From Botryllus schlosseri (lineage: Eukaryota), in assembly GCA_051294905.1 (NCBI GenBank), contig CM119372.1, positions 20,834,001 through 20,898,000 of the forward strand: a stretch of DNA of 64,000 bases, read 5' to 3'. The notes beneath the pieces are model-generated. The model did no database searches. It worked only from the letters and a program-made list of their open reading frames with translations, and was not told the origin of the DNA. Of this stretch, positions 1 through 57,611 are shown one piece after another. The position numbers were made by a program, and so were the translations under genes. Numbering within the stretch: position 1 is the first letter of the stretch; each line of letters opens with the position of its first letter.

Positions 1-835
1 GTGTATATATCTTCAAGTCGAGTAATAGGAGTACCGTCTGTTATGGCATGGCATCTGGCAACAGTAATGATGACTTGTGGGTTCAAAATTGTATCTTTTT
101 TGCGGCCGCTAGGAAACCAGTTACACCCCATCCTGTATGATTTGGTATGTCTGGACCATGGCTATTTCGTAGCGCTTGTGGGGGTCGATCACATGACAGA
201 GCTGTCGTTCCATGACTATTAGTAGACTTGTCCGATATGTTTTTCAAGGCTGAACTATGATCATGAACACTGAACAATCAGTTCTTCGAGGCTTTAGCAG
301 TAGAAATACAAAATAATAATAATAAATAATTAATAATAATAATAAATAATAAATAAATAGATAGCCCTGCCCATAAAGCTGTTTCGGAACTGGATTGTAC
401 GTTCAGTTCTGTAAATCCCGTCTGAAACACTTGCTGGATTAGAAAGTTTCGTTAGTCAGCATGCTAGACTTCTGCAAAGCAATGGCGTCTACTGAATTGT
501 GAATCTCCTATATACAGTGTGTTTGGTAGATTTCTTATTTAGATTCTCAGGGTGACATTGACATGTGAAATTGTGAATAGCTGGTCATTCTGAAGAGAGC
601 TTTCGATCCGGCACTGATGTTTTGTTGCGTCTACTTTCAGTAAGCGAAAGATGTTTTCATGGACGTATGCCCGCAAAAAGTAATACTTTCGAGAAATGTA
701 TCATTGACAAGTTTGAACTGCGAATGTGTTGCAGATTTCTCTTTTTAGCGAATCCTGCTTGTAGCCGACTTACACCACGAGACGCTGTCGACGTATGAAT
801 TTCATGAGCGGTTTTTTATTCCTCTTCCTGTGCAG

Positions 836-2153
836 GAGCGTGCAAACGTCGCCAATTTCCCGGGACATTCGGGACCGATCACGGACATCGCGTTCTCTGA
901 AAATGGATACTACCTGGCGACGGCGGCGGACGATTCGATGGTCAAGCTTTGGGATTTGAGGAAATTGAGGAATTTCAAAACCCTCACCATGGACGATAGA
1001 CACGAGGTACAAGCTGGTTTGAAATGGGATGTTCATTTCAGGAAATGCATTCATACTTAATGCGGTCAATCCTGATTTGATGTTTTTATCCTCTGCAGCT
1101 ACACAGAATTTATATTCCGCTCAATTACAAGTAGAAGTAGTCATTTCAGAGGCATGTTCAAACTTCTTCAAGTAGAAGCGGAAAATGCAGGTTTCAAAAA
1201 CTAAAGTAGGTTCGAAGAGTAAATTCGGTTGAGGGGTCGTGTGACTGCTGTGACGCTACAAATAATTACAAATATATTCATATTCATGATATGGCAACTG
1301 TAATTGTTTCACTCTTATATCCCAAAACATTCTAGCGTATTAGATCCAAAGTGTTGTAAGCAAAAGTTGTAGCAGTCTGAGAACTTGACCGCCGGGGTAG
1401 GCAGTTCAAGTGGGTAATCTTACTTGGGTACCAGATGTGGTCAAAGTAGTTCTTGTTGGTATTAGAGTAGAAGTAGCAATTTTCAAGTATGTAATTCAAT
1501 AATAATATTTTTCGACTATTTGTCTAGAAAACTGAAGTACTGGAAAACTGAAGTAGAATTGGAAGTAATCTAAAATCTTAATTACTTGAGTTAGCATTGC
1601 AAAAGACAAAAGCTACTCGAGTACTCCAAAAAGTAGACGCACTTGGTTGCTGACGCTCACCACCTCTGAGTAGAATTATGGCGATCTAAATTCTACACGA
1701 GCAGAATACGGTAGCGATTTTCGAGTAAGTAGAAAACGTGAAAATGCATTTTAGGCCTAATTTTGTTAAAAAAAACTGAAGTGTGAAGTAGAAATGAAAA
1801 TATTCTTGATAATAACCACTTGAGTGAGTAGTGCAAGTTCGCAAAACCTGCAAGAAAAGTAGAGTACCTCGCTGCCGATGGCATTGTCCAGCACTCTGAA
1901 AAAATAGAGGTTCTTTGTTACTGAACGCCCTTTGGAACCGTTTCAGATCAAGTCTCTGACTTTCGACAAGTCCGGCTCGTACCTGGCGGTCGCTGGCTCG
2001 GACGTGCAGGTCTACCTGTGCAAGCAGTGGCAGGAGCTGAAAACCTTCAAGGAGCACGGCGGGCTCGCTATGGGCGTGCGGTTCGGCGAGAACGCCAGCT
2101 TCCTGGCGTCGTGCAGCATGGACCGCACTCTGAAATACTACGGGTCCGCTTGA
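836..2153 (+). CDS. PRPF19: Pre-mRNA-processing factor 19 (WD40 C-terminus), last two coding exons; 5' part lies upstream of the window
   Basis: Exons 836-1006 ([49 protein letters not shown]) and 1947-2153 ([65 protein letters not shown]). Canonical AG/GT boundaries; recognisable Prp19 WD40 repeats. Confidence 0.93.
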
Positions 2154-2894: not shown

Positions 2895-5359
2895 TAGGGC
2901 TACCATATTTTTGTGAAGCAAATTCCGGACGCTCATCAGCGCCCACTAGCGGATTTTAAAATGGAGGTGTACCACTTTGACCGTAAATATGACGTCACAC
3001 TAACAAAGCATTGCTCATCGATTGTATACACCAGGGGCGTCCAACCTTTTAGGCCAAAGGGCCGCGTGACATTTACGAACCACGGGCCACTTGATGTTAA
3101 TAACCGTTTGTTAGATCACGGCGAAAACAATACTTATATTACTACGCGCCAAAATCGATTACAATTGTGTCATGAAAAGTCAGTGTGCAGTGCACTCAGG
3201 TCCCAACAGAAGTTTATAAACGTATTCGCATGGTTGTAACCAATACAAGGTTTATAAACGTATTCCTGTATTCGGTCAATAATAATGTCACTTGCATATA
3301 TTGCGGGTCGAATCTATACACCGCTAAGCTCATTTGGCAAGGACTGATTAATCGGTTCTTGGGCATATTAATATCGAATATTTCGGGCTTCGGCAAATAT
3401 GCGTCTAGCATTTTGCGCAAAGGTTTTATAGCCCACAATCTTTCTGCCATTGCAGACTAGAACATGTTGGACAACACGTTCTCTCATAATTTCGAACATG
3501 GTCAGACTCAATTCTGTAAATTGGGCGTATTTTTAAATTTTCATCTTCAGGGGGGTACCAATACTAAAACAAAGAAATCGAGTGACCATAAATAGCGTGG
3601 TCAGGCTAATCAAATTTTTAGTTGGCCTTGCCAGTTCACAATAAATTATATGGCTAATTAATTTTTTCTGTTATAACTAATTTCGAGAATTACGTCGCGA
3701 GCCACTCAAAACCTTCTCGCGGCCAGATTTGGCCCGCCGACCTCGGGGTGGCCGCCCCTGGTATATACTATACAGGAATGGAGTGGAACATAGGTCATGA
3801 ATTGGGTCATCTGTAATGTGAGCTCTGGTGATTTCTACTTGCTAGGGTCTGCGATAGATTCCTCCACGGTCCGGGTGAAATCATCTGGCGGGCCGTGTCT
3901 GGCCTGGCAGGATTGTGTTCGACAGCCCTGCTATACTGTTAGGCCGGTGCGGCTATCTGTTTATGTGTTTTAATCAGATCCTGAACAACATTTTTTCAGT
4001 CCCCTTCTGCCCAAAAAAACACTGATATTGGGCCCACCATAGGGTAGTCGATGTAAATTGTCAGGCACTTACTATATGCATTATGCTGTTGAATTTTATG
4101 TTTGAATTCTGTCAATAATATTGATTTTTCCATATTAGGCTACTATAAAATGCACCAGCAAGTTGCACATCCGGTGATCTCTAACCTTTCATGGTCGCGA
4201 CCTCATTTCCCACTTGAAAATATCCCGTGGCAAAGCTCAAAACTTGATAAACTGATTACTAGGGATGGTGTGAACCTCTGAAAGGTTCAGGTTCGTGTGA
4301 ACGCGAACCTTTTTGAAAGGTTCTGTGCGAACGCGAATGTGAACCTCATGACGTCACGTGACGTCATATTGCTAATTCCAACTTTACATTTCAGTGAAGT
4401 GATAGGCTTGCGATACCTAGAGACCACTCGGGCCACATAATCTAGGCTTACCATATTTCAGCAACCCAAATTCCGGACACTCTTTAGCGCCCACTAGTGG
4501 ATTTAAAAATGAGTTATGACGTCACGCTAGCAAAGCTTTGCTCGTAGACCAGAGGTGGTCACGATCCGATTCAGGAGTATGTGACTGTGTGTTGTGTAAC
4601 CGGGACCGAAAGCACATGTTTTCAGCCCCTTCTCGCCCAAATAAACAATGATTTTGAGCCCACACTATAGGGTAATCGATGCAACTTCTGGGGGGGGGGG
4701 AGCTTTTGCTATAGGAATCTGGTTTCTATATGCATCTGGGTGTGAAATTATTTGAATGAATTCTGTCAATAATATTGGTCGTTCCATATATTACTACTAT
4801 ACTCTTCGCCCACATGATCAGATCCAATTTGAAAATGTACCGTGGCCCAGATCAAAATTTGACGAGCTGATTACTAAAAGAAGTCAGCACCTTTGCCCAG
4901 ACTTACTCACGGGCTATTTTGGAAGCTGATTACGTTCAACATATTCGCAAACCCCACAATAAAGGCATACGAACCCCCCCCCCCCCCCGTTTCGACCACT
5001 ATCTTTGAATAAAGCACTTAAACGGCCTAAACGATCTCTAAGAATATACTTTTCTCCTATAATTGCGATTAGGCTTATTCCAGCAAATAAAGGTATATAT
5101 ATTTTGTGGCAGTTTTTGCGAGGGTGGTAGTCTCCATATTAAATTCAATAAATGTGATAGTAAATCGCGCGCAGCGCGAAGAAAAATATCATGCATCAGC
5201 ATAAATATTCCAAAACATATTGTTTTTATACTGATTTACGAAAAAAATTATCGTCAAAATTCCGGACATTTGGCATATTTTAGAAATTCCTCCCGGACGC
5301 TAGATTGAACAGTGAAATTCCAGACATGTCCGGGAAATTCCGGACGTTTGGCAACCCTA
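2895..5359. mobile_element. Non-autonomous hAT-type element (TAGGG[C/T]TACCAT...GGCAACCCTA family), composite
   Basis: TSD AACTAGGG at 2887-2894 and 5360-5367. Same family as 43087-45510. Contains a second left end near 4443 and a CAGGGG MITE. Confidence 0.8.
3032..3760. mobile_element. CAGGGG-ended (Charlie/MER-like) hAT MITE
   Basis: TIR CAGGGGCGTCCA...GGCCGCCCCTG with GGCC-rich subterminal motifs; flanks GTATACAC/GTATATAC (7/8 TSD). Confidence 0.7.
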
Positions 5360-5410
5360 AACTAGGGTTAGTTCGGATATCAATAATTTTTACTATCCGG
5401 ATAACGGGTG

Positions 5411-7144
5411 TAGGGTGGAGTGAAAATTACTTTTTTTTTCAAATCGAAAAACGGGCTTCCTCAATCCTGACAAATGCCCTGAAACTTCAATGACAAGTGA
5501 CTTCAGGGTATTACCCCCATTTCCCAGCCGGCAACCCCCCAATTTCTGCGCGTGGGGGGGGGTAAAATGGCCCATCTCGGCAACCGCTTGTCGTAGAGTC
5601 ATGATATATAGCTCAAAATCTGTGGAAGCATCATGTTTCTATCTGTCTTAAGAAGAAAGTTTTCTCTATTGTGAATACAAAATGAGTTATAGCCAAAAAA
5701 CAATATATACACACATTTTTGTTGAAATTCAGCATTTATTCTGACGAATTGTGATCCGTCATCAGTTTTTTTTGAAAAGAAAAGTAACACTCTGACAATA
5801 CCGAATATTGGGCCCATAATAGACACATATTCACAACACAGTCCTTTTAAAATCGGTTCAAAACATCAAAATGAAACACTCACATATTTAACGACTTATT
5901 GAAAATGCATTTTTGTGTCAAATTTTTTCATCAGTTTACGAGACTTAGTTTTTTGGCGAATGAGTCCATCTCGTCTTTCAAATCCCGAAACTTGTTCTGA
6001 TGCTTCTGTTACGAGCTTTACATGTCGTTCCACTGTTTGATTGTGGCATGGATGAAACAAAATCAGAGGCTTCTCGCGGCATTCTTCTAACTCTTCATCA
6101 GTTACGTGCTCAATCGCTGGAGGAAGTTGTTGATAAGGTTCAATACAACCAACTCGTGGTATGCCTTTGCTTCCAAGTTCAACTTTGGGACACATAATAA
6201 ACGAATAGGACCGCAGTTCAATTGGTTGGAACTGCTATGACATACGTGCCATAAGTGAATTTTGTTCAGCGGCATGTTTTCGAATTCACTTATGGCACGT
6301 ATGTCATAGCAGTTCCAACCAATTGAACTTCGCTCCTATTCGTTTATTCTGTGTCCCAAAGTGGAACTTGGAAGCAAAGGCATACCACGAGTTGGTTGAT
6401 ATTGAACCTTATCAACAACTTCCTCCAGCGATTGAGCACTTAACTGATGCAGAGTTGGAAGAATGCCGCGTGAAGCCTCTGATTTTGTTTCATCCATGCC
6501 ACAATCAAACAGTGGAACGACATGTAAAGCTCGTAATAGAAGCATCAGCACAAGTTTCTGGATTTGAAAGACGAGATGGCCTCTCATTAGCCAAAAAATT
6601 AAGTCTCGTAAACTGACGAAAAAATTTGACACAAAAATGCATTTTCAATAAGTCGTTAAATGTGAGTGTTTCATTATGATGTTTTGAACCGATTTTAAAA
6701 GGACTGTGTTGTGAATATATTTGTATTATGAGCCCAATATTCGGTATTGTCAGTGTGTTACTTTTCTTTTCAAAAAAACTGATGACGGATCACAATTCGT
6801 CAGAATAAATGCTGAATTTCAACAAAAATGTGTGTATATATTGTTTTTTTTGGCTGTAACTCATTTTGTGTTCACAATAGAGAAAACTTTCTTCTTAAGA
6901 CAGATATAAACATGATACTTCCGCAGATTTTGAGCTATATATCATGACTCTACGACAAGCGGTTGCCGAGATGGGCCATTTTACCCCCCCCCCCCCCTCC
7001 CACGCGCAGAAATTGGGGGGTTGCCGGCTGGAAAATGGGGGTAATACCGTGAAGTCACTCTTTATTGAAGTTTTAGGTCATTTGTCAGGATTGTGGAAGC
7101 CCTTTTTTCGATTTGAAAAAAAAGTCATTTTCACTCCATCCGTA
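5411..7144. mobile_element. Palindromic (fold-back) element made of two 3' ends of a hAT (hATm-like) transposon
   Basis: Arms 5411-6261 and 6283-7144 are diverged inverted copies around a 21-nt spacer. Each carries an outward-reading transposase C-terminus (HPCHNQTVERHVKLVTEAS...RRDGLIR; ORFs 5896-6195 - and 6323-6616 +). Terminus TAGGGTGGAGTG. No clear TSD. Confidence 0.75.
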
Positions 7145-11811: not shown

Positions 11812-14800
11812 ATGGCGGCCACCGAGGAAAGGGAGACATGGAAAAGAAAAATTGATTTCGCAGTTTCAATCGGTGGTGGCTTCGTCGGTTTGGGAAACGT
11901 CTGGAGATTCCCATACCTGTGCTTCAAGAATGGTGGAGGTGATACGTTTCTCTAGCCGTGGGTCGAAACGTAATTACCAAAATATTGAAATTCTTAGGAG
12001 CATTTCTTATTCCTTATATTCTTTTCGTGGCTTTGGGTGCACTTCCGGTTTTCTTTCTCGAAATCGCCCTCGGCCAATACGCAAGGCTAGGAGGTGGAAT
12101 GGCCTGGAAGATAGCACCTGTACTGAAAGGTAGGCCTTCGTAATTGTACAAATGTACATGTACGCGGATGTGCGATATTTATGGAACGCGTATTGAGTCT
12201 TCCATTCGTTGTCCAGCCAGAACAGATAGAGAGAGCCAACGTGCTATGCCCCGGGGAAACTAATCACTTTACCACAATTCGTACAATGGACCTCGAAAAC
12301 TAATGCAGATGTATCGGATTACATGTATTTCTAATTGGATTATTCGATTGCAATAATCGACTGGTGAATAGTGCAGAGGCGCCCGAAGTGAGGCCCACCT
12401 GGCAATTTATAACGGTCCGTGACTGGCCTCTTAAATTGACCCTTAACCAAAACCCCATCAGTAAAACTTTTCACCCATTTTTCAAATTGAAATGTTTAGC
12501 TAGTAATCAACCCACACCCATCACCGCGCACATGATGAGCAACAGATTTATTCCCTTCCGTTAAAATGTTATAGGAATGGTGCTTGATGCCCTTCCGGTC
12601 GAAAAATGTGATATCGGGGAATTCGATATCTATGACGTAATAACTCGTCCCCGATAAGACGAGATATTTCGTAGTTTTGCGTGTTTGGCTGAACCAGAAA
12701 TTACAATTTGTGGCCTCGGCAAGGCTGGTGTTTTTCCACTCTATTTGAGGGAATATTCTTGGGTAGGTCCATTGTAAAAGGTCAAAATATATTGGCTCCT
12801 GCGCCATGTCATAAAACCAATGTCCGGTATGACCAATGACCATATGTCACCAATTTGCAATTGTCACACTTCAGCCGCTACTGAAAACGTAGCCAAAGCA
12901 TTTCAAATAATTATGTCATCAATAGTACTACCGTGCCGCAATCCAAATCCCGATAGAATAGAATACAGAATACAATGGTAACACTACCGGCATGTCGAGT
13001 GAACCCTGCTTATATTGAAGTGTGCTATTTCATAAGAAGGCATGATTAACAAATGACTTCGGCACGTGTTTAAAAGATGGGCTTAGGCATGGGCGGCATT
13101 AGCGAGACTCTAATGAATACATTTACGTGACCAAACTATACCTCATTCGCCACTGGATTCGTGCTGTCCTGTAACCGCCACTTATTATTATTTTTTGATC
13201 CTTGATTGTTTTTACTCGTGGTGCTGAAATGTTATTTCTTACAATGCTGTTGCTATGTAGGCTATATGCCATTTTTGAACCACATGCATTCTTTGCACAC
13301 CATCATTCGCCGTGTTGCAATTCGTCGGATTACCGTTACACTTTTTTTCTTTCTAGGTATTGGGATATCTTCAGTCCTGATCAATTACTATTTCAACCTC
13401 TACTACGGCGTGATTCTTGCATGGGCTTTGCGGTATTTCTTTGCGTCAATGTCGCGGGAATTGCCCTGGTCGACATGCGGTAATTCGTGGAATAGCGAGT
13501 CTTGCTTCGTCTATGGAAAATCTCACAATATCACACACCAGATCGAAGTGAATACCACAGAATTGAAAATATCTTCCGTCGTTGAATTCTGGGAGTAAGT
13601 AGTTGGTAGCCGCCTATGCAAGTAGTATAGTAGATCGGTCGCATGCGGCCATTGGTTCTTATGGACGGGGTGGCGAGCTAACGAGAAACCGGGGGTGGCG
13701 AACTAACGTTTTCGTCTTATGGCGGGGGTGGCGAACTAACGTTTTCGTCTTATGGCGGGGGTGGCGAGCTAACGTTTTCGTCTTATGGGCGGGGAGGCGA
13801 GCTAACGAGAAACCGGGGGTGGCGAGCGGCTTTTATGTCTTATGGCGGGGGTGGCGAGCGGCTATTGTGTCTTGTGGTCGCACGGTAACCCTTTTCAGCA
13901 TAGACAGCGGTCGCACGCGGCTTCGTTGTTGGCATGTCGTACTTCGTGTTGAATATGTATCAAGTAAATAGTCATGTGAATGAACCTTTGTTAATGTGTA
14001 TATCGTCGTGTATTATTACACGGTCTCTACTGATTCACCATGTGTTCTTATGGGTGCGGTCGTGATTCGCACTTTCAGGCATCTCTCGCGTGGTGTTCAA
14101 TATCTACGAGTCACCAACAATAACCGCACAAACGGAAACGTGGCTTGTTGTGAGGATTAAGCAGTGCGACCTATATTTCGAATGACCTGCGCGCTGAATT
14201 GTTTCACGGCCAACCGCGTGCTACTATCGATTATTACACTATTCCATTCAGTGCGAAATAGTTTGCTAAATCTAGGAGTCACTTCCGAGGTAATATTTTG
14301 GTAATTAGTTTACCACAGAGTCGGCGTAGACGGCGATTCGAATATCAACAATAACCGCGTTCACAAACTAACACTTCAAAAATGTGTGAAATAGTTTACA
14401 AAACCCCGCGATCGCTGACAAGATAATGTCTCGGACATAACCATCTTTCGCGACTTGGTGTTACAGGCATATCGATCGCTCACGCGGAGAAATATTCGTA
14501 GGCATCACTCGCAGAATTATATTTTGGTAATTATTTTGTCACAGAACCGGCGTAGACGGTGATTCCAACACCAACAATAACCATGCACACAAACTAACAC
14601 TTCAAAAAGCGTGTGAAATATTTGTAAAATGCTACGATCACTCACAAGATAATGTCCCAGACATAACCATCATTCGTGACTTGATGTTACATACATACCA
14701 ATCGCTCACAAGGTAATATTTTGATAGTTTGGTACGGAACTTGATTTCACTCGTAAGATTTATTAAGTAACGAATAACAGACCACCAGTGTCGGTAACTT

Positions 14801-17800
14801 GAATAGCGACAAATTGTCACTTATTTCCGCTCTGACCCTAATCCTTTGTGAAGTGAACGCTTATTCAAAAGGGTGTGATATAATTTTAAAATCCAACGAC
14901 CACTCACCGGATAATGCTTCAGACATAGCAATCCCTCATACCCGCTCACAAGGTAATATTTCGGTAATTAGTTTGTCACAGAACCGTCGCAGGCGGTGAT
15001 TCGAAAACCAACAATTTGTCACTCGCCCGCGATCGCTATATGTTTCACGCCTCCAGAATAGTGGCTGACTTTAGTTGCGTGATAAGATCCATGAAAATAT
15101 TCAATCAATGTGTTAGTTTATCAACTTGAAATGAAACTCACTACACAAATCAAGTCGATTCGTATCTGAATGTTCTAAATCGGTACAACTCTAATCCTTT
15201 GACAAATCCCTTAACGCGTTTTTTGTTGACGCGAACGTAACCCGAATATTACTGACGCCGACTTTCAGCCGCATCGAATTATTCGCACATTCGCCGCTGT
15301 TTTCACACTTATAGAATCAATACCAACTATAACTCTACAAGAATCAAGAATCACAAGTATGTGCATTACACAGTTATTGTCTTTATTAACTTGAAATCAA
15401 ACACTTAACAAAAACACGCAACTAATCATTTGGCAACTCTAGCATTACCAAAAAATTCCAGTATTGTTGATTGAAAATCCTTGAGTCATTATTATCAAAA
15501 ATGTTATAGTACCGCATCGGAATCCATTCGCGGGATGTACTAAAGGTAAATCCAGATAATCCAAAATGAAATATTTGGACTTTGACATAGTCTGAATTGA
15601 AATATATTGACAAACATGACTACCAACTTTGATCCAGTCACATTTCAAGATCATACTTTGAAACAATCCTTGAAACTTACAACTCTATTCACGACTGAGT
15701 TTTCCGTTTATCAGTTTCAGTAAATACTATCGCGATATTTTAATGTGTTACTACACACAATAGAATCAATCAATGAAATAACACCTGTTGTAAATATTTC
15801 TAACTTGACAACCACTTGTGCATACCGCGATCGACTTGTGACGCGATGAGTTAAATCGGAATATTTCAATCTATTTGTCGAAACCTTGAACAAACTATCA
15901 GGTTATTTTTTGTTGCAATCGAGTGAACGGAAATAGTATTACGTCTCAACATTTCAACATCTTCCCATACACAAAAGAGTAAAACACAAAAAACCTTGTC
16001 AAGTCAATCCGTTTGTAACTTACCCAACCAAAACAAAAAGTAGACAAGACTACGCAAGTAATCACTACAACCAACAAACATATCAAGTTCGGTTTTAGGC
16101 ATATACCACCAACTCGTCTTATTGGAATGTCAGAAACTCTTTACGGTCATAGTTACAACCACATAAACTAATTTACCCTTCCCACACGTCATGATCATTC
16201 CTGAAATCAATACAAACTCGACCACTGACTTGAGTTAACCACAAAACGGCATCAAGTTTTTAATCCACTTGTAGCTGACAGATTATTCGAATACATCGAT
16301 GGAGAATATTATTGAACTCGTCGGTATTGTTACTTCAACAAATTACACCGACTGCGAAAGTTAATATCGAATGGTAAGACTTGATCACATATTTGTTGAA
16401 CACAGACATGACAAAGAACATGATCGGGATTTTATAAACTAGTCATATTACTTTTCACATCTATCAATATCAGAATACAAGTCATCAAACTTTTTGTTAA
16501 ATGTAACATAGCACTCTTGGAATCGGATTCGTTATAGTCGTACAAATTGTATTAAACCCAACATCAAAACAAAAGGACTTTTTTAGTTCATTGAAATCAA
16601 ATCATTCGTCTTCGACTTGTGCTTTTTTAGATTGCCCGCGACAATTCGTTTCGAGTGAGTTGTAACCAAAGTCAAGATATCTTTGTGTCCACAGATATGG
16701 AAGATGAATATAGCTAACACAATCACGAATCGACGTTTCAGAGTATTTCACAGATGTAATAAACTTGTTAGTGTCACCTATCTAAAAGTACGCACGCGTT
16801 CGATTTCCATACCGACTGTTGGGATGTTTAGGATTCACTTACAATAACCACGGGTGAGGATTTAACATCAACGTCGTTACTGGTGGTATTCACAACAGAG
16901 AATCGAAACATTACACAGTGTGAAAATATATCTTTGATATCAAAGCATTATCCCAAGCACACGATTAATAGTCAACTCCGTTCACACTTTCTATAGAACG
17001 TGCTAAATGTAAAATATCACGAGGTTGCACTCTAAGACTTTGATCATTACAAAAGTAAATTGGAATATGTTTGCTGGATGCATTCAATTCAGCTAGAAAT
17101 GTCTAGTGCACAACAATCGTAATATCAAGGAAGTACTTGCTATCACTAAACGTGTTTTGTATCGTTGTTCATTTGTAGCATTGATTGAAATTGTTTTTGA
17201 ACACTCAAATAATAATTCCCGACATGAAACCAAGCCGCTGAAAGTCGTTACCATAACAAAGAAACAATTTGTACGATGTTTGGCAAATGTACCCTATAGT
17301 TAGGTGTACTAGAATTATTTGTGTAACACATACACCGACAATGCAATCGAAATTTTTTCCGTTGTCATTCGCTAAAGTAAATGTCATCACAATACTCTGT
17401 CACTAAAAGACGTTACTCGGACGTGCTTGAATTCTAGGCATAGTTCTGATTTACCCAACACAAGACCCAAGGACAACCCTAGTTTCAGTCGAACACAGAT
17501 ATCCAAAATATCGCACACTTCGCTATTCCTAAAGCGCAAACACCCGATACAAAATATTACTTGTTGTGTTGTTGCGGCATCATCTTCACAATATCACCCT
17601 CAATACAAATGATGTTTATGTGTGACATGCTATTGATTTGAATCACACCCACCTGACGGAAGAGGATTTACTCAATCTTTACAAAATGGATATTGACCAA
17701 CATCACATCGCCGGATTGTATCTGTTTTGCTGGATACGAGTTATGTTAGTTTAACAGTAAACAAATTTCACCCTCTTGGATTATGAACTCAATGCGTTAG

Positions 17801-20800
17801 CAGTCATTCAATATTTTGTTTGTGTCAACTAGTTACTTGGTATGTTACTCCACAACTCTTACAAAAGTACGAAGGATATTAACATCACACTAAGTAATTA
17901 ACTTTACTCGATATTCTCGCATTACGAAACTAAAGAATGGTTGGTTAGACTCTACAAACTGTTTCGATATCACAAGACCTTTATTGTCTGAATGGGTGTT
18001 CATCTATCTTAATAATCAAATAGTTCAACACAGAACTAGTACTAACAGAAACATCAGAGTTGTTTACACAAAAGTTTGTATGTGTACAGTATGCGAATAC
18101 CATGTGTAAGTCCAGCACAATTGCGGTATCCATCCGAGTTTAGTTAACACAAATTTATTACAACGGACCCACGTAAACTTTCGTGAAAGAAAAGCATACT
18201 CACTTCCGGATGGTTCTATCAATGCCATAACAATAAATCAGCTACTCCAACAAAAGAGTACATATGTTTTCTAGTCGCGGTCCCTAAATCATACACACGA
18301 AACAATCTACTTTTGCTAACGAAAAGTGCTGAGTCATCACATAATCACCCTCACAACAAAACAGCTAGTAGATATTATCATTCAAAATATTCCTAACCCT
18401 TTACACACCAGTGACAAATCATACAACGAATATGTTTTGTGGGTCGAATTGTTGTTCAGTGTCAAGTCTGCCTGTTGAAACTTACATTAAAACAACACAG
18501 TCACAATTCAATTAAAACCACGAATCTATTTTCATTTCGTCACATACAGAAAAATAAATTTTCTTTCCCCAACACATACTTGTAACCAATCGCTTTCAAT
18601 AAACACACAACTTCATAAAAGTATTTACTTTCTACAACATAGACATTCCGATGTAGTCAAGAAATATTTTTATTAATCAAAATCTTCGACTTCTGTTTAC
18701 GGTGTTAGTGTGTGCATGTCATACACGTGGGGCCCGTATTAAAATGGACACGACACAACTGAATGTAAGGAGATAGAAGTCTATCGCATAGATTTACATG
18801 TGGTCTTCGCTACGGTTTCAAAAAAACGAATCATCTCTTTTGCATTGATCTAGACCGAGCAAGTTAGTTAATGACCATGATTGTGTTTGTCATATGCGAA
18901 TGATAGGGTTACTGTCAAATCTACATACAACAACCTTCTGGCACTCGTAATAGCTATTTCATTCTCTCCCTTCGTAGTCATATACCCCCAACTCGGCTTT
19001 TTTGTTCATCGACAGCTGCGTTTAACAAGACCAACGACACTGAACCCACGACGTTTACCTATGTAAAATTACCACTTTCACTTGGCAGTCCGTCGTTTAC
19101 CTGGCTAAACATATCATTTTCACTTGGAAATCTATTTTTTTCCAGAGTAAGAAACCTTTTTCACTTGGAAATCTATTTTTTCCCTGGGTAACAAACCTTT
19201 TTCACGTGGAAAGATATTTTTTCCCCGGGTAACAAACCTTTTTCGCTTGGAAATATATTTTTCCCTGGGTTAAAAACCTTTTTCACTTGGTGGTCCGTCG
19301 TTTACCTGAGTAAAAATATCATTTTCCTTTGGGGATCTGGCGTTTACCCAGTGTAACAATACATTTTCTCTTGGTCATCTAGCTTTTCCTAGAGTAACAA
19401 AACCATTTTCATTTTGAAATCTGACAAACTCACCTGACAATTTGATATTTTTGTATATTGTTACAACGGATAGCGACAAAATATACACCAACAACAACAA
19501 CTCCAATACATTTGTGTAATCGCATATTCACTTGTGCTGATGCAACCCATCAAAATCATCGGTTACCCACATGCAATGTGCTGTTGTACATCGACGTTTA
19601 TGTTTTTGAAAAATTGGACAATAGGCTTCGATAGTTCTGTGATGTCCGGGCTCGTGCTTTGGATTTTCCAGAGTCAAAATGTCTGAATAAAACACCTCCT
19701 TGACGATGGTTGGTATGTGGATAACGGTGTTCGGAAAACGGTTGGATTTATGTCACCCATCGCGATAACAATTCCAGGTCGAGTTTTCCCCCGCGTGTTT
19801 ACTATATTGTGTCTTTATTGGTCAATGTATGTCTCGAGATTCAGTTTGAAATCGGAAACCCTGATAAAGTATGTAACCGGATCCGGATATCAACTCTGAA
19901 TCGATAAACCAATGAACAATATTCAAAGTAAACATGTTACACCCTGTGTTTCCACGAAAAAATACCATCCAGACATACGTCGCGCTTGTTTCCCCACATC
20001 AGTATACGCGTAAATGGAGGTGTGTGACATTGCATGCAATGTGTTGGCATACAAACATCGGGGAGTAATCCTTCGATCCACAGACATTATCATAGCCGGT
20101 AGTTTTGATGTAGATCGAATGTCATCACACCCGATAACAATACCAATAAGCCACATTGCAATGACTCTGAGTCAATCTGAAACATGACATACAGACACAC
20201 AAACATGGAACCCTAACATGGGTTATTCGCACGACGGTGAAAGTGAACTATACAGCATATACCAATAGAGCGTTCACAGACATTCACCGTGCACAATCAT
20301 ATACCCAGATTTTTGTTGGATATGTACGAAACCGATAAATCGATACATTTCTTTTCCTTCAACGTCAATAATACAAAGGTCATTCCAATTCATCGCTCGA
20401 ATGTGAGGTTCGTCGGGTGTAAAATCCATGTCAAATAACACCAAAGTGTGCCTTCCGTGTTTTATTATTTCCACCGTCGCATCTTGTCTGTGTCGTAACA
20501 CTATGGTGCAGGGACTTGAAAAACGGTACTTTGTAAAACGGATTGACATGTTCTTCGGTATGACCAACTGAATAGCCTTGTGGTGATGACAGTTTCAAAA
20601 TGCTCCGATATGACGAGACCAACCCCGATCTCGCGTGGTGACGACCGTTTTTTTTTTGTAATGTTACCGGACGAACTGGACAAACCCTTACGATGGTGTG
20701 TTTTATGATTGTGTGTGAAATCACGAGGTAGTGTGGTATACGATTGTAGTCTTCATTCCACAGAAACACACCTTATTGGATCACAGTATCAGTCCGAGAT

Positions 20801-23800
20801 TTGCAGAATCACTGTTCACGATATTTATCTGGAGTCGGTATGTGCGAGTAGCGACATCCATTCATCGTGACTGAAAGACTGATCGCAATCATTTCGAGCA
20901 CCGTACTTCGATAGTTCACCTAGATCAAACGCTGTAGTCTCAGCAGAAAACTTCGGTATCGACAACACGGTGGATATCGACCGATGTATCCAATTGGTCT
21001 GGGTGATCTGTCTGGAAATAGGGTCATGACTATCTTGTAATGTTACAACGCGATAAAACCATCGAGTAAATCAGTGAACGGTGTGGAAATATCGATGTAA
21101 TAGCGCGGACTCAGAGTCATTGCAATGTGGCTTATTGGTATTGTTATCGGGTGTGATGACATTCGATCTACATCAAAACTACCGGCTATGATAATGTCTG
21201 TGGATCGAAGGATTACTCCCCGATGTTTGTATACCAACACATTGCATGCAATGTCACACACCTCCATTTACGCGTATACTGATGTGGGGAAACAAGCGCG
21301 ACGTATGTCTGGATGGTATTTTTTCGTGGAAACACAGGGTGTAACATGTTTACTTTGAATATTGTTCATTGGTTTATCGATTCAGAGTTGATATCCGGAT
21401 CCGGTTACATACTTTATCAGGGTTTCCGATTTCAAACTGAATCTCGAGACATACATTGACCAATAAAGACACAATATAGTAAACACGCGGGGGAAAACTC
21501 GACCTGGAATTGTTATCGCGATGGGTGACATAAATCCAACCGTTTTCCGAACACCGTTATCCACATACCAACCATCGTCAAGGAGGTGTTTTATTCAGAC
21601 ATTTTGACTCTGGAAAATCCAAAGCACGAGCCCGGACATCACAGAACTATCGAAGCCTATTGTCCAATTTTTCAAAAACATAAACGTCGATGTACAACAG
21701 CACATTGCATGTGGGTAACCGATGATTTTGATGGGTTGCATCAGCACAAGTGAATATGCGATTACACAAATGTATTGGAGTTGTTGTTGTTGGTGTATAT
21801 TTTGTCGCTATCCGTTGTAACAATATACAAAAATATCAAATTGTCAGGTGAGTTTGTCAGATTTCAAAATGAAAATGGTTTTGTTACTCTAGGAAAAGCT
21901 AGATGACCAAGAGAAAATGTATTGTTACACTGGGTAAACGCCAGATCCCCAAAGGAAAATGATATTTTTACTCAGGTAAACGACGGACCACCAAGTGAAA
22001 AAGGTTTTTAACCCAGGGAAAAATATATTTCCAAGCGAAAAAGGTTTGTTACCCGGGGAAAAAATATCTTTCCACGTGAAAAAGGTTTGTTACCCAGGGA
22101 AAAAATAGATTTCCAAGTGAAAAAGGTTTCTTACTCTGGAAAAAAATAGATTTCCAAGTGAAAATGATATGTTTAGCCAGGTAAACGACGGACTGCCAAG
22201 TGAAAGTGGTAATTTTACATAGGTAAACGTCGTGGGTTCAGTGTCGTTGGTCTTGTTAAACGCAGCTGTCGATGAACAAAAAAGCCGAGTTGGGGGTATA
22301 TGACTACGAAGGGAGAGAATGAAATAGCTATTACGAGTGCCAGAAGGTTGTTGTATGTAGATTTGACAGTAACCCTATCATTCGCATATGACAAACACAA
22401 TCATGGTCATTAACTAACTTGCTCGGTCTAGATCAATGCAAAAGAGATGATTCGTTTTTTTGAAACCGTAGCGAAGACCACATGTAAATCTATGCGATAG
22501 ACTTCTATCTCCTTACATTCAGTTGTGTCGTGTCCATTTTAATACGGGCCCCACGTGTATGACATGCACACACTAACACCGTAAACAGAAGTCGAAGATT
22601 TTGATTAATAAAAATATTTCTTGACTACATCGGAATGTCTATGTTGTAGAAAGTAAATACTTTTATGAAGTTGTGTGTTTATTGAAAGCGATTGGTTACA
22701 AGTATGTGTTGGGGAAAGAAAATTTATTTTTCTGTATGTGACGAAATGAAAATAGATTCGTGGTTTTAATTGAATTGTGACTGTGTTGTTTTAATGTAAG
22801 TTTCAACAGGCAGACTTGACACTGAACAACAATTCGACCCACAAAACATATTCGTTGTATGATTTGTCACTGGTGTGTAAAGGGTTAGGAATATTTTGAA
22901 TGATAATATCTACTAGCTGTTTTGTTGTGAGGGTGATTATGTGATGACTCAGCACTTTTCGTTAGCAAAAGTAGATTGTTTCGTGTGTATGATTTAGGGA
23001 CCGCGACTAGAAAACATATGTACTCTTTTGTTGGAGTAGCTGATTTATTGTTATGGCATTGATAGAACCATCCGGAAGTGAGTATGCTTTTCTTTCACGA
23101 AAGTTTACGTGGGTCCGTTGTAATAAATTTGTGTTAACTAAACTCGGATGGATACCGCAATTGTGCTGGACTTACACATGGTATTCGCATACTGTACACA
23201 TAAAAACTTTTGTGTAAACAACTCTGATGTTTCTGTTAGTACTAGTTCTGTGTTGAACTATTTGATTATTAAGATAGATGAACACCCATTCAGACAATAA
23301 AGGTCTTGTGATATCGAAATAGTTTGTAGAGTCTAACCAACCATTCTTTAGTTTCGTAATGCGAGAATATCGAGTAAAGTTAATTACTTAGTGTGATGTT
23401 AATATCCTTCGTACTTTTGTAAGAGTTGTGGAGTAACATACCAAGTAACTAGTTGACACAAACAAAATATTGAATGACTGCTAACGCATTGAGTTCATAA
23501 TCCAAGAGGGTGAAATTTGTTTACTGTTAAACTAACATAACTCGTATCCAGCAAAACAGATACAATCCGGCGATGTGATGTTGGTCAATATCCATTTTGT
23601 AAAGATTGAGTAAATCCTCTTCCGTCAGGTGGGTGTGATTCAAATCAATAGCATGTCACACATAAACATCATTTGTATTGAGGGTGATATTGTGAAGATG
23701 ATGCCGCAACAACACAACAAGTAATATTTTGTATCGGGTGTTTGCGCTTTAGGAATAGCGAAGTGTGCGATATTTTGGATATCTGTGTTCGACTGAAACT

Positions 23801-26800
23801 AGGGTTGTCCTTGGGTCTTGTGTTGGGTAAATCAGAACTATGCCTAGAATTCAAGCACGTCCGAGTAACGTCTTTTAGTGACAGAGTATTGTGATGACAT
23901 TTACTTTAGCGAATGACAACGGAAAAAATTTCGATTGCATTGTCGGTGTATGTGTTACACAAATAATTCTAGTACACCTAACTATAGGGTACATTTGCCA
24001 AACATCGTACAAATTGTTTCTTTGTTATGGTAACGACTTTCAGCGGCTTGGTTTCATGTCGGGAATTATTATTTGAGTGTTCAAAAACAATTTCAATCAA
24101 TGCTACAAATGAACAACGATACAAAACACGTTTAGTGATAGCAAGTACTTCCTTGATATTACGATTGTTGTGCACTAGACATTTCTAGCTGAATTGAATG
24201 CATCCAGCAAACATATTCCAATTTACTTTTGTAATGATCAAAGTCTTAGAGTGCAACCTCGTGATATTTTACATTTAGCACGTTCTATAGAAAGTGTGAA
24301 CGGAGTTGACTATTAATCGTGTGCTTGGGATAATGCTTTGATATCAAAGATATATTTTCACACTGTGTAATGTTTCGATTCTCTGTTGTGAATACCACCA
24401 GTAACGACGTTGATGTTAAATCCTCACCCGTGGTTATTGTAAGTGAATCCTAAACATCCCAACAGTCGGTATGGAAATCGAACGCGTGCGTACTTTTAGA
24501 TAGGTGACACTAACAAGTTTATTACATCTGTGAAATACTCTGAAACGTCGATTCGTGATTGTGTTAGCTATATTCATCTTCCATATCTGTGGACACAAAG
24601 ATATCTTGACTTTGGTTACAACTCACTCGAAACGAATTGTCGCGGGCAATCTAAAAAAGCACAAGTCGAAGACGAATGATTTGATTTCAATGAACTAAAA
24701 AAGTCCTTTTGTTTTGATGTTGGGTTTAATACAATTTGTACGACTATAACGAATCCGATTCCAAGAGTGCTATGTTACATTTAACAAAAAGTTTGATGAC
24801 TTGTATTCTGATATTGATAGATGTGAAAAGTAATATGACTAGTTTATAAAATCCCGATCATGTTCTTTGTCATGTCTGTGTTCAACAAATATGTGATCAA
24901 GTCTTACCATTCGATATTAACTTTCGCAGTCGGTGTAATTTGTTGAAGTAACAATACCGACGAGTTCAATAATATTCTCCATCGATGTATTCGAATAATC
25001 TGTCAGCTACAAGTGGATTAAAAACTTGATGCCGTTTTGTGGTTAACTCAAGTCAGTGGTCGAGTTTGTATTGATTTCAGGAATGATCATGACGTGTGGG
25101 AAGGGTAAATTAGTTTATGTGGTTGTAACTATGACCGTAAAGAGTTTCTGACATTCCAATAAGACGAGTTGGTGGTATATGCCTAAAACCGAACTTGATA
25201 TGTTTGTTGGTTGTAGTGATTACTTGCGTAGTCTTGTCTACTTTTTGTTTTGGTTGGGTAAGTTACAAACGGATTGACTTGACAAGGTTTTTTGTGTTTT
25301 ACTCTTTTGTGTATGGGAAGATGTTGAAATGTTGAGACGTAATACTATTTCCGTTCACTCGATTGCAACAAAAAATAACCTGATAGTTTGTTCAAGGTTT
25401 CGACAAATAGATTGAAATATTCCGATTTAACTCATCGCGTCACAAGTCGATCGCGGTATGCACAAGTGGTTGTCAAGTTAGAAATATTTACAACAGGTGT
25501 TATTTCATTGATTGATTCTATTGTGTGTAGTAACACATTAAAATATCGCGATAGTATTTACTGAAACTGATAAACGGAAAACTCAGTCGTGAATAGAGTT
25601 GTAAGTTTCAAGGATTGTTTCAAAGTATGATCTTGAAATGTGACTGGATCAAAGTTGGTAGTCATGTTTGTCAATATATTTCAATTCAGACTATGTCAAA
25701 GTCCAAATATTTCATTTTGGATTATCTGGATTTACCTTTAGTACATCCCGCGAATGGATTCCGATGCGGTACTATAACATTTTTGATAATAATGACTCAA
25801 GGATTTTCAATCAACAATACTGGAATTTTTTGGTAATGCTAGAGTTGCCAAATGATTAGTTGCGTGTTTTTGTTAAGTGTTTGATTTCAAGTTAATAAAG
25901 ACAATAACTGTGTAATGCACATACTTGTGATTCTTGATTCTTGTAGAGTTATAGTTGGTATTGATTCTATAAGTGTGAAAACAGCGGCGAATGTGCGAAT
26001 AATTCGATGCGGCTGAAAGTCGGCGTCAGTAATATTCGGGTTACGTTCGCGTCAACAAAAAACGCGTTAAGGGATTTGTCAAAGGATTAGAGTTGTACCG
26101 ATTTAGAACATTCAGATACGAATCGACTTGATTTGTGTAGTGAGTTTCATTTCAAGTTGATAAACTAACACATTGATTGAATATTTTCATGGATCTTATC
26201 ACGCAACTAAAGTCAGCCACTATTCTGGAGGCGTGAAACATATAGCGATCGCGGGCGAGTGACAAATTGTTGGTTTTCGAATCACCGCCTGCGACGGTTC
26301 TGTGACAAACTAATTACCGAAATATTACCTTGTGAGCGGGTATGAGGGATTGCTATGTCTGAAGCATTATCCGGTGAGTGGTCGTTGGATTTTAAAATTA
26401 TATCACACCCTTTTGAATAAGCGTTCACTTCACAAAGGATTAGGGTCAGAGCGGAAATAAGTGACAATTTGTCGCTATTCAAGTTACCGACACTGGTGGT
26501 CTGTTATTCGTTACTTAATAAATCTTACGAGTGAAATCAAGTTCCGTACCAAACTATCAAAATATTACCTTGTGAGCGATTGGTATGTATGTAACATCAA
26601 GTCACGAATGATGGTTATGTCTGGGACATTATCTTGTGAGTGATCGTAGCATTTTACAAATATTTCACACCCTTTTTGAAGTGTTAGTTTGTGTGCATGG
26701 TTATTGTTGGTGTTGGAATCACCGTCTACGCCGGTTCTGTGACAAAATAATTACCAAAATATAATTCTGCGAGTGACGCCTACGAATATTTCTCCGCGTG

Positions 26801-29800
26801 AGCGATCGATATGCCTGTAACACCAAGTCGCGAAAGATGGTTATGTCCGAGACATTATCTTGTCAGCGATCGCGGGGTTTTGTAAACTATTTCACACATT
26901 TTTGAAGTGTTAGTTTGTGAACGCGGTTATTGTTGATATTCGAATCGCCGTCTACGCCGACTCTGTGGTAAACTAATTACCAAAATATTACCTCGGAAGT
27001 GACTCCTAGATTTAGCAAACTATTTCGCACTGAATGGAATAGTGTAATAATCGATAGTAGCACGCGGTTGGCCGTGAAACAATTCAGCGCGCAGGTCATT
27101 CGAAATATAGGTCGCACTGCTTAATCCTCACAACAAGCCACGTTTCCGTTTGTGCGGTTATTGTTGGTGACTCGTAGATATTGAACACCACGCGAGAGAT
27201 GCTTGAAAGTGCGAATCACGACCGCACCCATAAGAACACATGGTGAATCAGTAGAGACCGTGTAATAATACACGACGATATACACATTAACAAAGGTTCA
27301 TTCACATGACTATTTACTTGATACATATTCAACACGAAGTACGACATGCCAACAACGAAGCCGCGTGCGACCGCTGTCTATGCTGAAAAGGGTTACCGTG
27401 CGACCACAAGACACAATAGCCGCTCGCCACCCCCGCCATAAGACATAAAAGCCGCTCGCCACCCCCGGTTTCTCGTTAGCTCGCCTCCCCGCCCATAAGA
27501 CGAAAACGTTAGCTCGCCACCCCCGCCATAAGACGAAAACATTAGTTCGCCACCCCCGCCATAAGACGAAAACGTTAGTTCGCCACCCCCGGTTTCTCGT
27601 TAGCTCGCCACCCCGCCCATAAGAACCAATGGCCGCATGCGACCGATCTACTATACTACTTATGCATATACACACCCAGCTATATCAGTAGTTCTTAACC
27701 TGGCTGGTACCGATCGAACCTCATGGGTTGTTCGGCGGGGGTCAAGCATATAAGATAATCATACCTATTGTTACAAGATATCTGGGCGAGCGATAGGCCT
27801 ACTATACGAGTATGGTAGATGTGACAGCGAGGACAAACAGCGGAGTTTGATGCGGAAATGATATCGCGCAATCCTGAAATCTTGTCAAGGTTGGTCAGTA
27901 GGGTTGTTCAAAAATAACTTTTTTTCCAGATTTCAGTCATTCACTGATTAAATTGTCAGGTTACCCTAATAAAGGCTGCACATCAAATTTGGTTCAACTC
28001 TAACAAGTATAAGCCGTCGCAGAGCCAATTTAAAATTTTGATTTATTAAGAAAAAATAAAATTGGAAATTATCTGTCAACCCCATGAAACTGTTGAGTTG
28101 TCTTTAAAAACGATGCAAAACAAATTTGACTCAATTCCAACCAGTAGAAGCGGAGTTATTTGAGTTTTTCGTTGATAATTCTCGGATTATCCTTGATTGA
28201 TTTGACCTTTTTCCGAGTGTCATCTATGAAACTCGAGATTGTAGTAATGTTGTCTGTACGTTTGTGGCTTTCTGTATTTAGAAACGGTGTACTTGGTATC
28301 TCCCCGGGAATCGGAGACATAGGAACCATACAGTGGAAACTTCTTCTCTGTCTTATAGGCACCTGGATTGCTATATATTTTTGCATATGGAAAGGTATCG
28401 AATGGACTAGCAAAGTAAGATGATAGTTTTGATTTACAAAAGGGAGGGAATGACAACGATATATTCTGCATTCAGATTGTATATGTGACAGCTTCTTTTC
28501 CACTGTTGATGCTTTTGGTTTTGCTTGTACGGGGACTCACCCTTGACGGTGCCGTAGATGGAATAGTATTCTATCTGAGGCCAGACCTGGCAAGGCTGGG
28601 TGATATTCAGGTATATCATTGTATTTGACCTGCATAATTACTGCATTCATTAATTTCGATGCAAATCAGATTCGCTTTGCCTTTTTAATGTAGTAATCCT
28701 AATCCATATATCTATTTATCGTAATCAAAGACTGTTGGATAAAACCATCTGGTTCTGGGTGGATGGTGATCAATGTTGACTGTTGGGTATCGACACACGA
28801 ACCTAATTTGACTAGGCTGCTCTGAAATCTGCATTTTACATTGGACGACCTGAATGTTCTTGACTCTGAAACCTCTCCACATATTTTGGTATCATTAAAA
28901 TCGAGATAATCAAAACCAGCAGACCAAAAGTTCTGCAGCTTTAATTCAAGGTACAACGCGATGATATTTACGCGGCTCATGCACGCACTTTCGACTGCAT
29001 GTATACGTACGACCCCAATGTAACTTTCCGTACCAAATGCGAGGTCAATCAGGTGCTTCAGGTCATTATCATGTGATCACGCCCCGTATAGTAACGTAAC
29101 CCATTTATATTGCTATATATATTTAATATTAGTATATTCTAGTTATTGTTACCGCGATGAGTGGGATTCTTCCGAATGTCCCGAAAGTGGAAATTTGAGT
29201 CTTTTACATAATTTGATTTCCAGGTGTGGTTAGATGCAGCCGCACAAGTTTTCTTTTCGTACGCCCTTTGCAAGGGAATGATGACAACAATGGGAAGCTA
29301 CAATCAGTATAGATATAACAGCTACAGGTGTGAATATATCTATGTTTGTTATATTTCACCTGTATAGCAAAGAAAGTAGACCAGTCGTTCTCAACCGCGG
29401 GGGTCCGCAAAACCTCTAAATTTGTAAAATGATTGCTAACCTATAATTTGTATTTTTTTTAAATAGGGAAGGCATGAGACAGTTTCGATTGATAATTGCT
29501 AAAACTTCAGGACTCAGATCATTAGAATGGTCGTCTGAGATAAAATATTCTACTGTGCAAACCCATTTCAGTTGCCAAATTGCCAATAGCCTTCACTCTA
29601 CTGCTCTACAGATACAAACATATTGCTGTTTAGAGACGTTTTGTTGGGTCATCTGAAATAGAAATTCCTGATTTTTCCCTATATTCTATCCCAATGAAGG
29701 GATTGAAACCTCGCCACGAAATCCATTTTCTCCTGTGATATACATAACAGTGGCGGCTCGTGACAATATCAGGTGGTGGGGCAAGGGCTGCAAGCGACTT

Positions 29801-46243: not shown

Positions 46244-46330
46244 GCTTGGTACGCTTGCTTGCTTGGTACGCTTGCTTGGTACGCTTGCTTGGTACGCTTG
46301 CTTGGTACGCTTGCTTGCTTGGTACGCTTG
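46244..46330 (+). repeat. Tandem array of six TTGGTACGCTTG(C) copies at the LINE 5' junction
   Basis: GGTACG cores at 46248, 46265, 46278, 46291, 46304 and 46321; a single copy follows the LINE at 48373-48385. Confidence 0.92.
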
Positions 46331-56604: not shown

Positions 56605-57611
56605 CGAACTTATGGACGATGCGTTTCAAATTATATTTACGTAATATACTGTTTTTGACTCACACGGAGGCGGTGTTGAGCTCTTGCGGGTATTGAGTTT
56701 GTTGTATGTGAAGCAGGAGATTGTGTGGGTTCTACTATATGTCTCTTCATTTTGTATGATACACTTTGGAGCGAACGGCACGTCGGAGGCAGGGTTTTGC
56801 AACATGAAACAAAAGAATCCAGCAAGCTTGACTTCGAAATAACATGATTCGTAATGTTCAAACGGGAAGGTGTTTTCATCGGCCCCCCTTCACTTTAATG
56901 TTGCTAGTATAGGGTTGCGTTTGATGTAGCATAGAATTAACATATCAACGGAAATTCCACAAACTGCTGTAAATAATCATTTTCTTGATAATATAGGGCT
57001 AGATAAGAAAGCACTCGTTGAAGAATCGTCCGAATGCTGAGATGAACGAGTCAATGCCTCTGTTGATCTCGACCATCCGATGGGTTATATTATACTTGGA
57101 GACTGGGGCACTTAGGACTGAGTAAGTATAGCTGTCTATACTAATATAAAAGCAATAACTATACTTCCGATGCTGTGACAATGTGTCTGCATTCAGTAAT
57201 TTAGCATCCATGATCATTATATTGATTCGTTGCGCATATTAGTCATCAATCTAAATCAGTGGTCCTTAACCTTTTTTGCTCCAGCGCCCCTCTTTCAAAA
57301 ATTGTCGTGCTCTAGCGCCCCCCACCCCCATATTGTCCTCATTTTTCAAGTTTTTGAAAATGTCCTTCGAGGACGCCCAAATGTCCTCCTTTTTGGCAAT
57401 TCGTTCTCCTTACAGCTTTTAGAGCTAAGATGGTGGATAGTTTTGAGTGAAAATGGGCATAAACGATGCTAAACAGGAAATCGTGTTTCGAACGTAATCG
57501 ACGAATTTCTTTTGTCTACCAACGGAAAATCTAGAAGAAAAACTGTATTTCGGGAGTTGAGCCTGAAAGTTGACCCTTTTTTTAGTCAACCAACCGCAAT
57601 TTTCAATCAAT

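Follow-up and report, generated by a model that had tools for sequence, protein, structure and literature searches.

Polintons, or Mavericks, are defined by encoding a protein-primed DNA polymerase B (pPolB) and a retroviral-like integrase (PMC5499653). One survey of vertebrate Mavericks describes (AGT)2//(ACT)2 ends, target-site duplications (TSDs) that are perfect and 6 bp long, inverted repeats of 46-1,447 nucleotides (nt; mean 402) and lengths of 12.7-24.6 kb; in the same account these elements are thought to be viral, and particles are said not to have been seen in animals (PMC8097293). In this study, we analysed a window of 64,000 nt from Botryllus schlosseri (contig CM119372.1, positions 20,834,001 to 20,898,000 of the forward strand), part of a 495.5-Mb eukaryotic assembly of 219 contigs (GCA_051294905.1). 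Unless a contig is named, coordinates are positions in this window. The window contains a 14,040-bp foldback element (13621-27660) that shares with Mavericks and Polintons the end motif, the perfect 6-bp TSD, inverted termini and a length inside 12.7-24.6 kb, and its termini are collinear with those of Polintons resident in the same genome. Unlike them, it carries no genes, its inverted repeat of 6,553 nt takes up 93% of the element, and the foldback copies number in the hundreds, exceeding the gene-bearing elements. As Polintons by definition encode polymerase and integrase, a gene-less element of this kind is a non-autonomous derivative and not a Polinton. The element very probably belongs to a non-autonomous foldback family mobilised by Polintons, a gene-less derivative of the resident elements.

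A repeat search showed that the window contains a single inverted repeat, whose arms, 13620-20173 and 21108-27661, are 934 nt apart. The arms were compared base by base, which gave 8 mismatches (13665, 13740, 14078, 14504, 14610, 17961, 18078 and 20048) and no insertions or deletions. The outermost pair, 13620/27661, is part of the duplicated target, and the element proper therefore runs from 13621 to 27660, with a left arm at 13621-20173 (+ strand) and a right arm, its reverse complement, at 21108-27660 (- strand). The 6,553-nt arms make up 93.3% of the element length. A repeat of 6.5 kb at their identity of 99.88% is far beyond chance. The element begins with AGTAGT (13621-13626) and ends with ACTACT (27655-27660), and copies of TATGCA, the 6-bp TSD, flank it at 13615-13620 and 27661-27666. 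A first-pass annotation, made from the letters of the window, had described arms of 6,553 bp, the same eight substitutions, a 934-bp spacer, AGTAGT termini and a perfect TATGCA duplication. Arms, substitutions and spacer agreed with our comparison position for position, and the sequence confirmed both termini and TSD. The subterminal tandem repeats that it had claimed have periods of 33 and 32 nt and lie at 13690-13877 (+), with a mirror at 27404-27591. Its statement that no intact core genes remain was also borne out. The longest stop-to-stop frame in the element has 122 amino acids, and none of its 78 stop-to-stop frames of at least 45 amino acids gave a Pfam match below E 0.01. Frames, Pfam and translated comparison revealed no trace in the element of the Polinton polymerase, the rve integrase or the capsid morphogenesis genes (capsid protein, penton, ATPase and protease).

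We compared the element with a gene-bearing Polinton of the same genome, located at C7:28247263-28260677. This Polinton is 13,415 bp long, with the TSD GTCGTC, inverted repeats of 636 nt and frames in a row on one strand. The first 302 nt of the foldback arm (13621-13922, +; mirror 27359-27660, -) form a Polinton-type terminal region, collinear with both ends of the C7 Polinton at 81% identity overall and 93-96% over parts. Arm nt 357-396 also aligned collinearly with these ends. Beyond the (AGT)2 end motif, the repeated motifs CTTATGG..GGGG and GGWGGCGARC are common to foldback and Polinton termini, with copy numbers of 5 versus 6 and 7 versus 5. Further inside, arm nt 1641-1889 (15261-15509, +) showed a weak match (69% identity, E 2e-24) to the Polinton, covering the innermost part of its left inverted repeat and, on the capsid-gene side only, some 165 nt past this repeat. 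The recognisably Polinton part of each arm comes to only about 0.4-0.65 kb, and when the arm and the C7 Polinton were compared in translation, no decayed remnants of Polinton genes came to light in the arm. The same 17-nt terminus variant flanks a gene-bearing copy and a foldback pair (C1:32844841/32859018). The TSD was 6 bp long in both kinds of element, in 4 of 4 foldbacks and in the gene-bearing C7 copy. These results support the earlier claim of Polinton/Maverick ends, with the (AGT)2//(ACT)2 motif, the perfect 6-bp TSD and termini collinear with gene-bearing elements.

The gene content of the C7 Polinton was then read from its frames. It encodes an integrase with rve and chromodomain matches (E 5e-16 and 1.5e-7) and a P-loop ATPase whose A32-like matches are weak. 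It also encodes a DNA_pol_B_2 fragment that scores 28.8 bits, higher than the Pfam cut-off of 25.8. A further protein of 432 amino acids had 134 homologues, several of which are named 'F54H12.2-like' by their sources. Its fold was predicted with a mean local confidence (predicted local distance difference test, pLDDT) of 88.6. In Foldseek, the model matched double-jelly-roll capsid proteins of an iridovirus (8hif, E 1e-16), Sputnik (3j26, 1e-15) and mavirus (6g44, 3e-13); it also matched the capsid protein of PBCV-1 as well as adintovirus and adomavirus entries in a viral library. On its predicted fold, this protein is a double-jelly-roll major capsid protein. Genome-wide, 97 of 305 candidate matches to the capsid gene were scored, and 85 of these 97 contain no stops. 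The polymerase fragment had 150 matches, dozens of them in open frames of 1,200-1,300 amino acids. Three terminus pairs on contig C1, whose ends match the 44-nt terminus pattern described below, enclose capsid and polymerase genes and measure 15,407, 17,263 and 20,922 bp. Several distinct Polinton lineages appear to coexist in the genome. The polymerase matches form identity classes of about 92-100%, 72-79%, 63-71% and 37-41%, many of them in open frames of 1,100-1,310 amino acids, and a second capsid lineage (80% identity, 447 amino acids) was present among the scored matches. In the C7 Polinton, two adjacent frames of 225 and 301 amino acids on the - strand (L063:1416-2090 and 2084-2986) overlap by 7 nt and point to the same Atlas clusters. 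They are nearest to unnamed Preplasmiviricota clusters, and the nearest named cluster is the Sputnik minor capsid protein (0.95), which serves as a lead only. The two frames may be halves of a single penton-like gene that a frame change has split, or else paralogues.

The foldback family was abundant in the assembly. A 44-nt terminus pattern occurred 839 times in forward and 805 times in reverse orientation, 1,644 times in all, and its reversed control gave 0 and 0. Judging from these 1,644 termini, elements with such ends occupy roughly 2% of the assembly. A 22-nt word of the spacer (20454-20475, +), which 27 of 29 other spacer copies retain, occurred 290 times, with a control count of 0. The terminal 300 nt gave 71 scored matches elsewhere, many of them as +/- pairs 12.6-18.1 kb apart. 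The spacer itself (20174-21107), an asymmetric loop specific to this family, had 40 further matches at 86-93% identity, mostly full-length, and nearly all of them lay at the centres of palindromes. We checked 22 palindromic copies. For 10 terminus pairs both ends were compared, and 8 of them were inverted repeats across all of the 1.7-1.9 kb available, at 99.5-100% identity. The remaining two consisted of one pair with an inverted repeat of only 637 nt and one with arms 80-92% alike (C11:23886017/23899449). Where flanks were read, 4 of 4 foldback pairs had distinct perfect 6-bp TSDs (TATGCA, CACGTT, GCCGTG and GACGGC). The first-pass annotation had proposed a search for other palindromic copies of about 14 kb with different TSDs, and such copies exist.

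A second copy, at C7:28631000-28650400, was compared over its whole length and aligned to the window element in parts only, at 75-93% identity. Its own 6.8-kb arms are 99.98% and 100% identical around a 660-nt spacer, and one arm only holds a 4,073-nt insertion (C7:28635596-28639668). This insertion contains a self-complementary stretch of its own of 654 nt (84%; 5141-5794 of locus L061). Element lengths come from contig C1, where the first 100 listed termini all lie; stack pairing joined these into 39 pairs. Among these, 22 measured 12-15 kb (mean 13,702 bp, standard deviation 567), 14 were longer (15.4-41.8 kb, nested cases included) and 3 were shorter. Of the 22 pairs of 12-15 kb, 8 carry the spacer word at most about 180 nt from the midpoint. 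Another 6 pairs were examined at their midpoints, and all proved homologous there to the inner arm and spacer of the window element, with no similarity to Polinton interiors; three are palindromes, symmetric around spacers of 956, 978 and 332 nt, and three had an off-centre axis. We also considered that the centre (about 19019-22262) might be an independent 3.2-kb foldback nested in a larger one. This was rejected on two grounds: nearly every spacer copy belongs to a palindrome that reaches the ends of the locus examined, and pair midpoints carry the spacer. Real nesting was seen elsewhere. At C1:32992130-33018942, two pairs with identical termini lie one within the other. The inner pair (32997234/33010673) is 13,440 bp long and has the spacer word at its midpoint, and the outer pair without the insert again measures about 13.4 kb; the locus is a foldback nested in another element of the same family.

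The junction between arm and spacer was the same in 27 of 30 copies, in which the arm ends in ...GCAATGACTCTGAGTC and meets the same two different spacer ends. In the window, the innermost 11 nt of the arm, GACTCTGAGTC, are self-complementary (20163-20173; mirror 21108-21118). A junction shared by 27 of 30 copies indicates that the palindrome was made once and then inherited, and the palindrome is, as read from these copies, an inherited family architecture with a single origin. The first-pass annotation had taken the element for one end of a Polinton copied back on itself, analogous to a snap-back viral genome. As a fresh event, this is not supported for the present copy, since one fixed junction runs through the family.

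We next compared the 600 nt of arm adjoining the spacer in the 30 copies, each oriented by its spacer. The nearest neighbour was the copy's own partner arm for 57 of 60 arms. The median distance was 0.59% within a copy; between copies it was 4.35% for arms of the same side and 4.31% for arms of opposite sides. Same-side and opposite-side distances are alike and partners are closest, so left arms and right arms do not form lineages of their own. Where a change sets one lineage apart, both arms of a copy carry it. A star-like burst followed by decay in place was excluded, because within-copy and between-copy distances would then be equal. In older copies, arm identity falls to 86-94%, so the arms diverge after chromosomal insertion and homogenisation accompanies propagation. 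These results demonstrate that the two arms of a copy evolve together.

These observations suggest how Polintons might move the foldbacks. The retained terminal region of about 300 nt with its (AGT)2 motif presumably holds the origin of protein-primed replication and the recognition sites of the integrase. Polinton integrase supplied in trans would insert the foldback, and the 6-bp target duplication would follow from this insertion. The protein-primed polymerase of Polintons probably copies the foldback from its (AGT)2 ends; in the vertebrate survey, repetition of the end motif is proposed to permit 'jumping back' (PMC8097293). For the arms to change in lock-step, one of them must at some stage serve as template for its partner. 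The likeliest way is that a single strand displaced from such a molecule folds into a full-length 6.5-kb hairpin, in which mismatch repair, or intramolecular switching of the polymerase onto the nascent arm as template, would homogenise the arms and leave the junction untouched. We regard this hairpin step as plausible, at somewhat less than an even chance. The palindrome, to judge from its fixed junction, originated once and was inherited afterwards, its arms being kept alike during propagation.

Several points weigh against derivation from, and mobilisation by, the resident Polintons. Over the remaining 5.5 kb or so, neither the nucleotides nor the translations of an arm resemble the one C7 Polinton compared. 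Of the earlier proposal that the element is a Polinton end copied back on itself, the Polinton nature of the ends is supported; a fresh copying back is not supported by the inherited palindrome and by these 5.5 kb. The polymerase of the C7 Polinton is broken: its frames of 167, 202 and 193 amino acids are separated by an in-frame stop and a frame change. The related gene-bearing element that had been predicted was found with collinear termini, pPolB, integrase, ATPase and capsid protein; no protease was identified among the frames of the C7 Polinton. The presence of intact helpers is judged from open-frame lengths in match tables and not from whole elements. A profile search of the genome with PF03175 returned no polymerase. 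This was a false negative, as a frame found later scores above the cut-off, and the other negatives of the same family search are therefore weak, since such a search can miss abundant genes. No contig spanned the element in 4 public runs, all of which consist of short Logan contigs. Movement, replication and helper dependence, and with them mobilisation in trans, use of the polymerase, hairpin homogenisation and any packaging, are all deduced from sequence. Even with these points, the shared termini, the common TSD length and the family structure make a Polinton-mobilised foldback family the very probable reading.

The narrow length range bears on a further possibility, put forward in the first-pass annotation, that the foldbacks are packaged in capsids of helper Polintons. 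In adenovirus, gutless genomes are reported to be packaged as inverted dimers, and subgenomic left-end DNA is described in incomplete particles (PMC4189039, PMC5033970). Helper-dependent genomes shorter than about 75% of wild-type length are reported to rearrange and thereby gain length, and a 15-kb vector was packaged as direct and inverted dimers (PMC4189039). The foldbacks would be analogous to these genomes as gene-less, protein-primed linear DNA that depends on a helper and reaches near-helper length by inverted duplication. Unlike the adenovirus derivatives, which are products of the laboratory or of a single infection, the foldbacks are germline-integrated and long-lived, have a fixed junction, and are known from the genome alone. 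According to this explanation, foldback length lies near that of the helper because only DNA of near-genome length is packaged stably, and the palindrome would be the route by which a gene-less replicon of half size attains the packaged length. Several results are consistent with it. The 22 of 39 C1 pairs at 12-15 kb cluster at 13.7 +/- 0.6 kb, and only 3 pairs are shorter. Total length is kept in copies that are only partly alignable at 75-93% (14,040 bp in the window and 14,273 bp in the C7 copy without its insertion), and it holds while spacers vary threefold across copies (332-997 nt). Gene-bearing elements are of similar length (13,415, 15,407 and 17,263 bp), and capsid genes of helper Polintons are open. 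The sizes of vertebrate Mavericks vary by about 10%, which the authors of the survey take as a capsid constraint (PMC8097293).

The same narrow range could equally result if a few master copies, similar to one another, underwent recent bursts, or if protein-primed replication has an optimal length, and the few gene-bearing elements measured span 13.4-17.3 kb. We know of no Polinton packaging signal. The length distribution therefore fits, without proving, a size limit of packaging or replication. That foldbacks travel in helper capsids is a tentative proposal, which we think rather less likely than not. The fuller version, in which they are satellites of an endogenous Polinton virus, hairpin-replicated by its protein-primed polymerase and packaged in its capsids, is likewise possible on the genomic evidence but doubtful.

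The site of insertion bears on another explanation. An exon of an SLC6-type (SNF family) transporter lies to the left of the element, at 13206-13594 (+; frame 13206-13595), and matches PF00209 profile positions 77-160 (E 2e-21). The next SNF-family exon, at 28274-28420 (+; frame 28148-28420), covers profile positions 158-205. A GTAAGT donor-like site at 13595-13600 lies directly 3' of the first exon, which places the insertion about 26 nt inside the transporter intron; without the element, this intron would measure about 0.6 kb. Transcription of the palindrome from such an intron might yield double-stranded RNA and small-RNA silencing of Polintons, and the host might retain the family for this reason. 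Any read-through transcript would form a perfect 6.5-kb hairpin, the intron of an SNF-family gene is a transcribed context, and the arms share a terminal region with Polintons. The shared sequence is, however, non-coding and terminal only, so that small RNAs would miss the Polinton genes, and some 800 mobile copies with TSDs look parasitic and not like a host device. We consider such a host-exploited hairpin improbable.

Drosophila FB-type foldback elements have very long inverted arms, made up largely of tandem repeats, around a loop; they are mostly non-coding and their target duplication is 9 bp. The window element resembles them in its long inverted arms around a loop, in the tandem repeats of the arms and in its lack of coding capacity. 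Unlike FB, its arms consist mostly of unique sequence (about 14% tandem repeats), and it has a 6-bp TSD and the termini of a self-synthesising element. Foldback transposons are also mentioned in PMC6431247. The foldback could in principle be a cut-and-paste element of another superfamily, FB-like, that is similar to Polintons only at its tips and whose arms are kept alike by chromosomal gene conversion. The foldback architecture with repeats in the arms and the lack of Polinton gene remnants would agree with this. However, the similarity extends beyond the 6-nt tip over about 300 collinear nt with the same motifs, a 17-nt terminus variant is common to a gene-bearing copy and a foldback pair, and 6-bp TSDs occur in both. 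Tandem arrays take up only about 0.9 of the 6.55 kb of each arm, and the older arms at 86-94% indicate that conversion in place fails to hold arms identical. An origin in another superfamily is thus very improbable.

Contigs of public runs were also compared with the locus. In run X2, short contigs cross both flank/element junctions and show no difference over 29 and 28 nt, just below the 31 nt used as the criterion for bridging. No empty-site joint was found among the 15 listed of 110 public-run joints. The summed contig depth inside the element was hundreds to thousands of times that of the flanks, which should not be read as a copy number. Runs X1 and X8 represent two samples, and in each of them one contig ends on the left flank at 13614, plus 30 unaligned letters, and another contig begins exactly at 27661. 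Given the 30-letter overlap of contigs, this pattern is what would be expected for an empty-site allele with a single TATGCA. That the palindrome is a long-read foldback chimera collapsed into the assembly is scarcely credible, for although no contig of the 4 public runs spans it, the TSD is perfect, the arms differ at 8 positions, hundreds of copies share the junction in different flanks, the C7 copy has an insertion in one arm only, and the X2 contigs follow both junctions unchanged for 29 and 28 nt.

Other features of the element and its surroundings were recorded. Within the left arm, a 226-nt tandem repeat of 1.8 copies lies at 14293-14709 (+; mirror 26572-26988), and repeats of 41/42 nt lie in the inner arm at 19117-19410 (+; mirror 21865-22164), where the copy number differs among family members. 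Foldback copies at C2:27814198/27826928 and on C12 (L018) are inserted in other retroelements, with flanking frames that carry endonuclease and reverse-transcriptase domains. At loci L043, L045 and L051, the flank at the point where arm symmetry stops early often resembles the same short terminus (..CCCACCCCTG), which suggests a second common transposon inserting into foldback arms. In the window, three long frames carry RVT_1 domains: 46244-48259 (+), 57473-59044 (+) and 61662-63998 (-), the last also with zf-RVT. At 47-48 kb and 62-64 kb, RVT_1 frames fall together with strong excursions of AT skew. By their domains, the three frames are taken to be retroelement copies downstream of the transporter gene. 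The frame 749-1057 (+) matches a Prp19-type WD40 domain (E 6e-24) and is probably an exon of a neighbouring host gene.

A full-text literature search, with Repbase outside its reach, yielded no paper on Polinton derivatives that lack genes or are palindromic, and the sole use of 'non-autonomous polinton' in the literature searched concerned Tlr1. What is added here is that the foldbacks are tied directly to gene-bearing Polintons and share a fixed junction, together with counts for the genome and the distribution of lengths. Like miniature inverted-repeat transposable elements (MITEs) and other non-autonomous DNA transposons, the foldback family keeps only the cis-acting ends of its autonomous partner and outnumbers it. 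Unlike MITEs, which are short, it retains the partner's length, and short derivatives are rare (3 of 39 C1 pairs).

Non-autonomous relatives of Polintons have barely been described, and here a parasite of a parasite outnumbers its probable helper. The family keeps the length of the helper instead of shrinking as MITEs do, and its 6.5-kb arms undergo strong concerted evolution. Hundreds of perfect palindromes of 14 kb are also hot spots of assembly error and instability. The family offers a handle on whether Polinton DNA passes through a size-selective stage such as a capsid, and on whether Polinton replication involves single-stranded hairpin intermediates. If the foldbacks are indeed packaged satellites, their abundance and conserved length would be indirect genomic evidence for Polinton virions, with parasites of the defective-interfering kind, in this animal.

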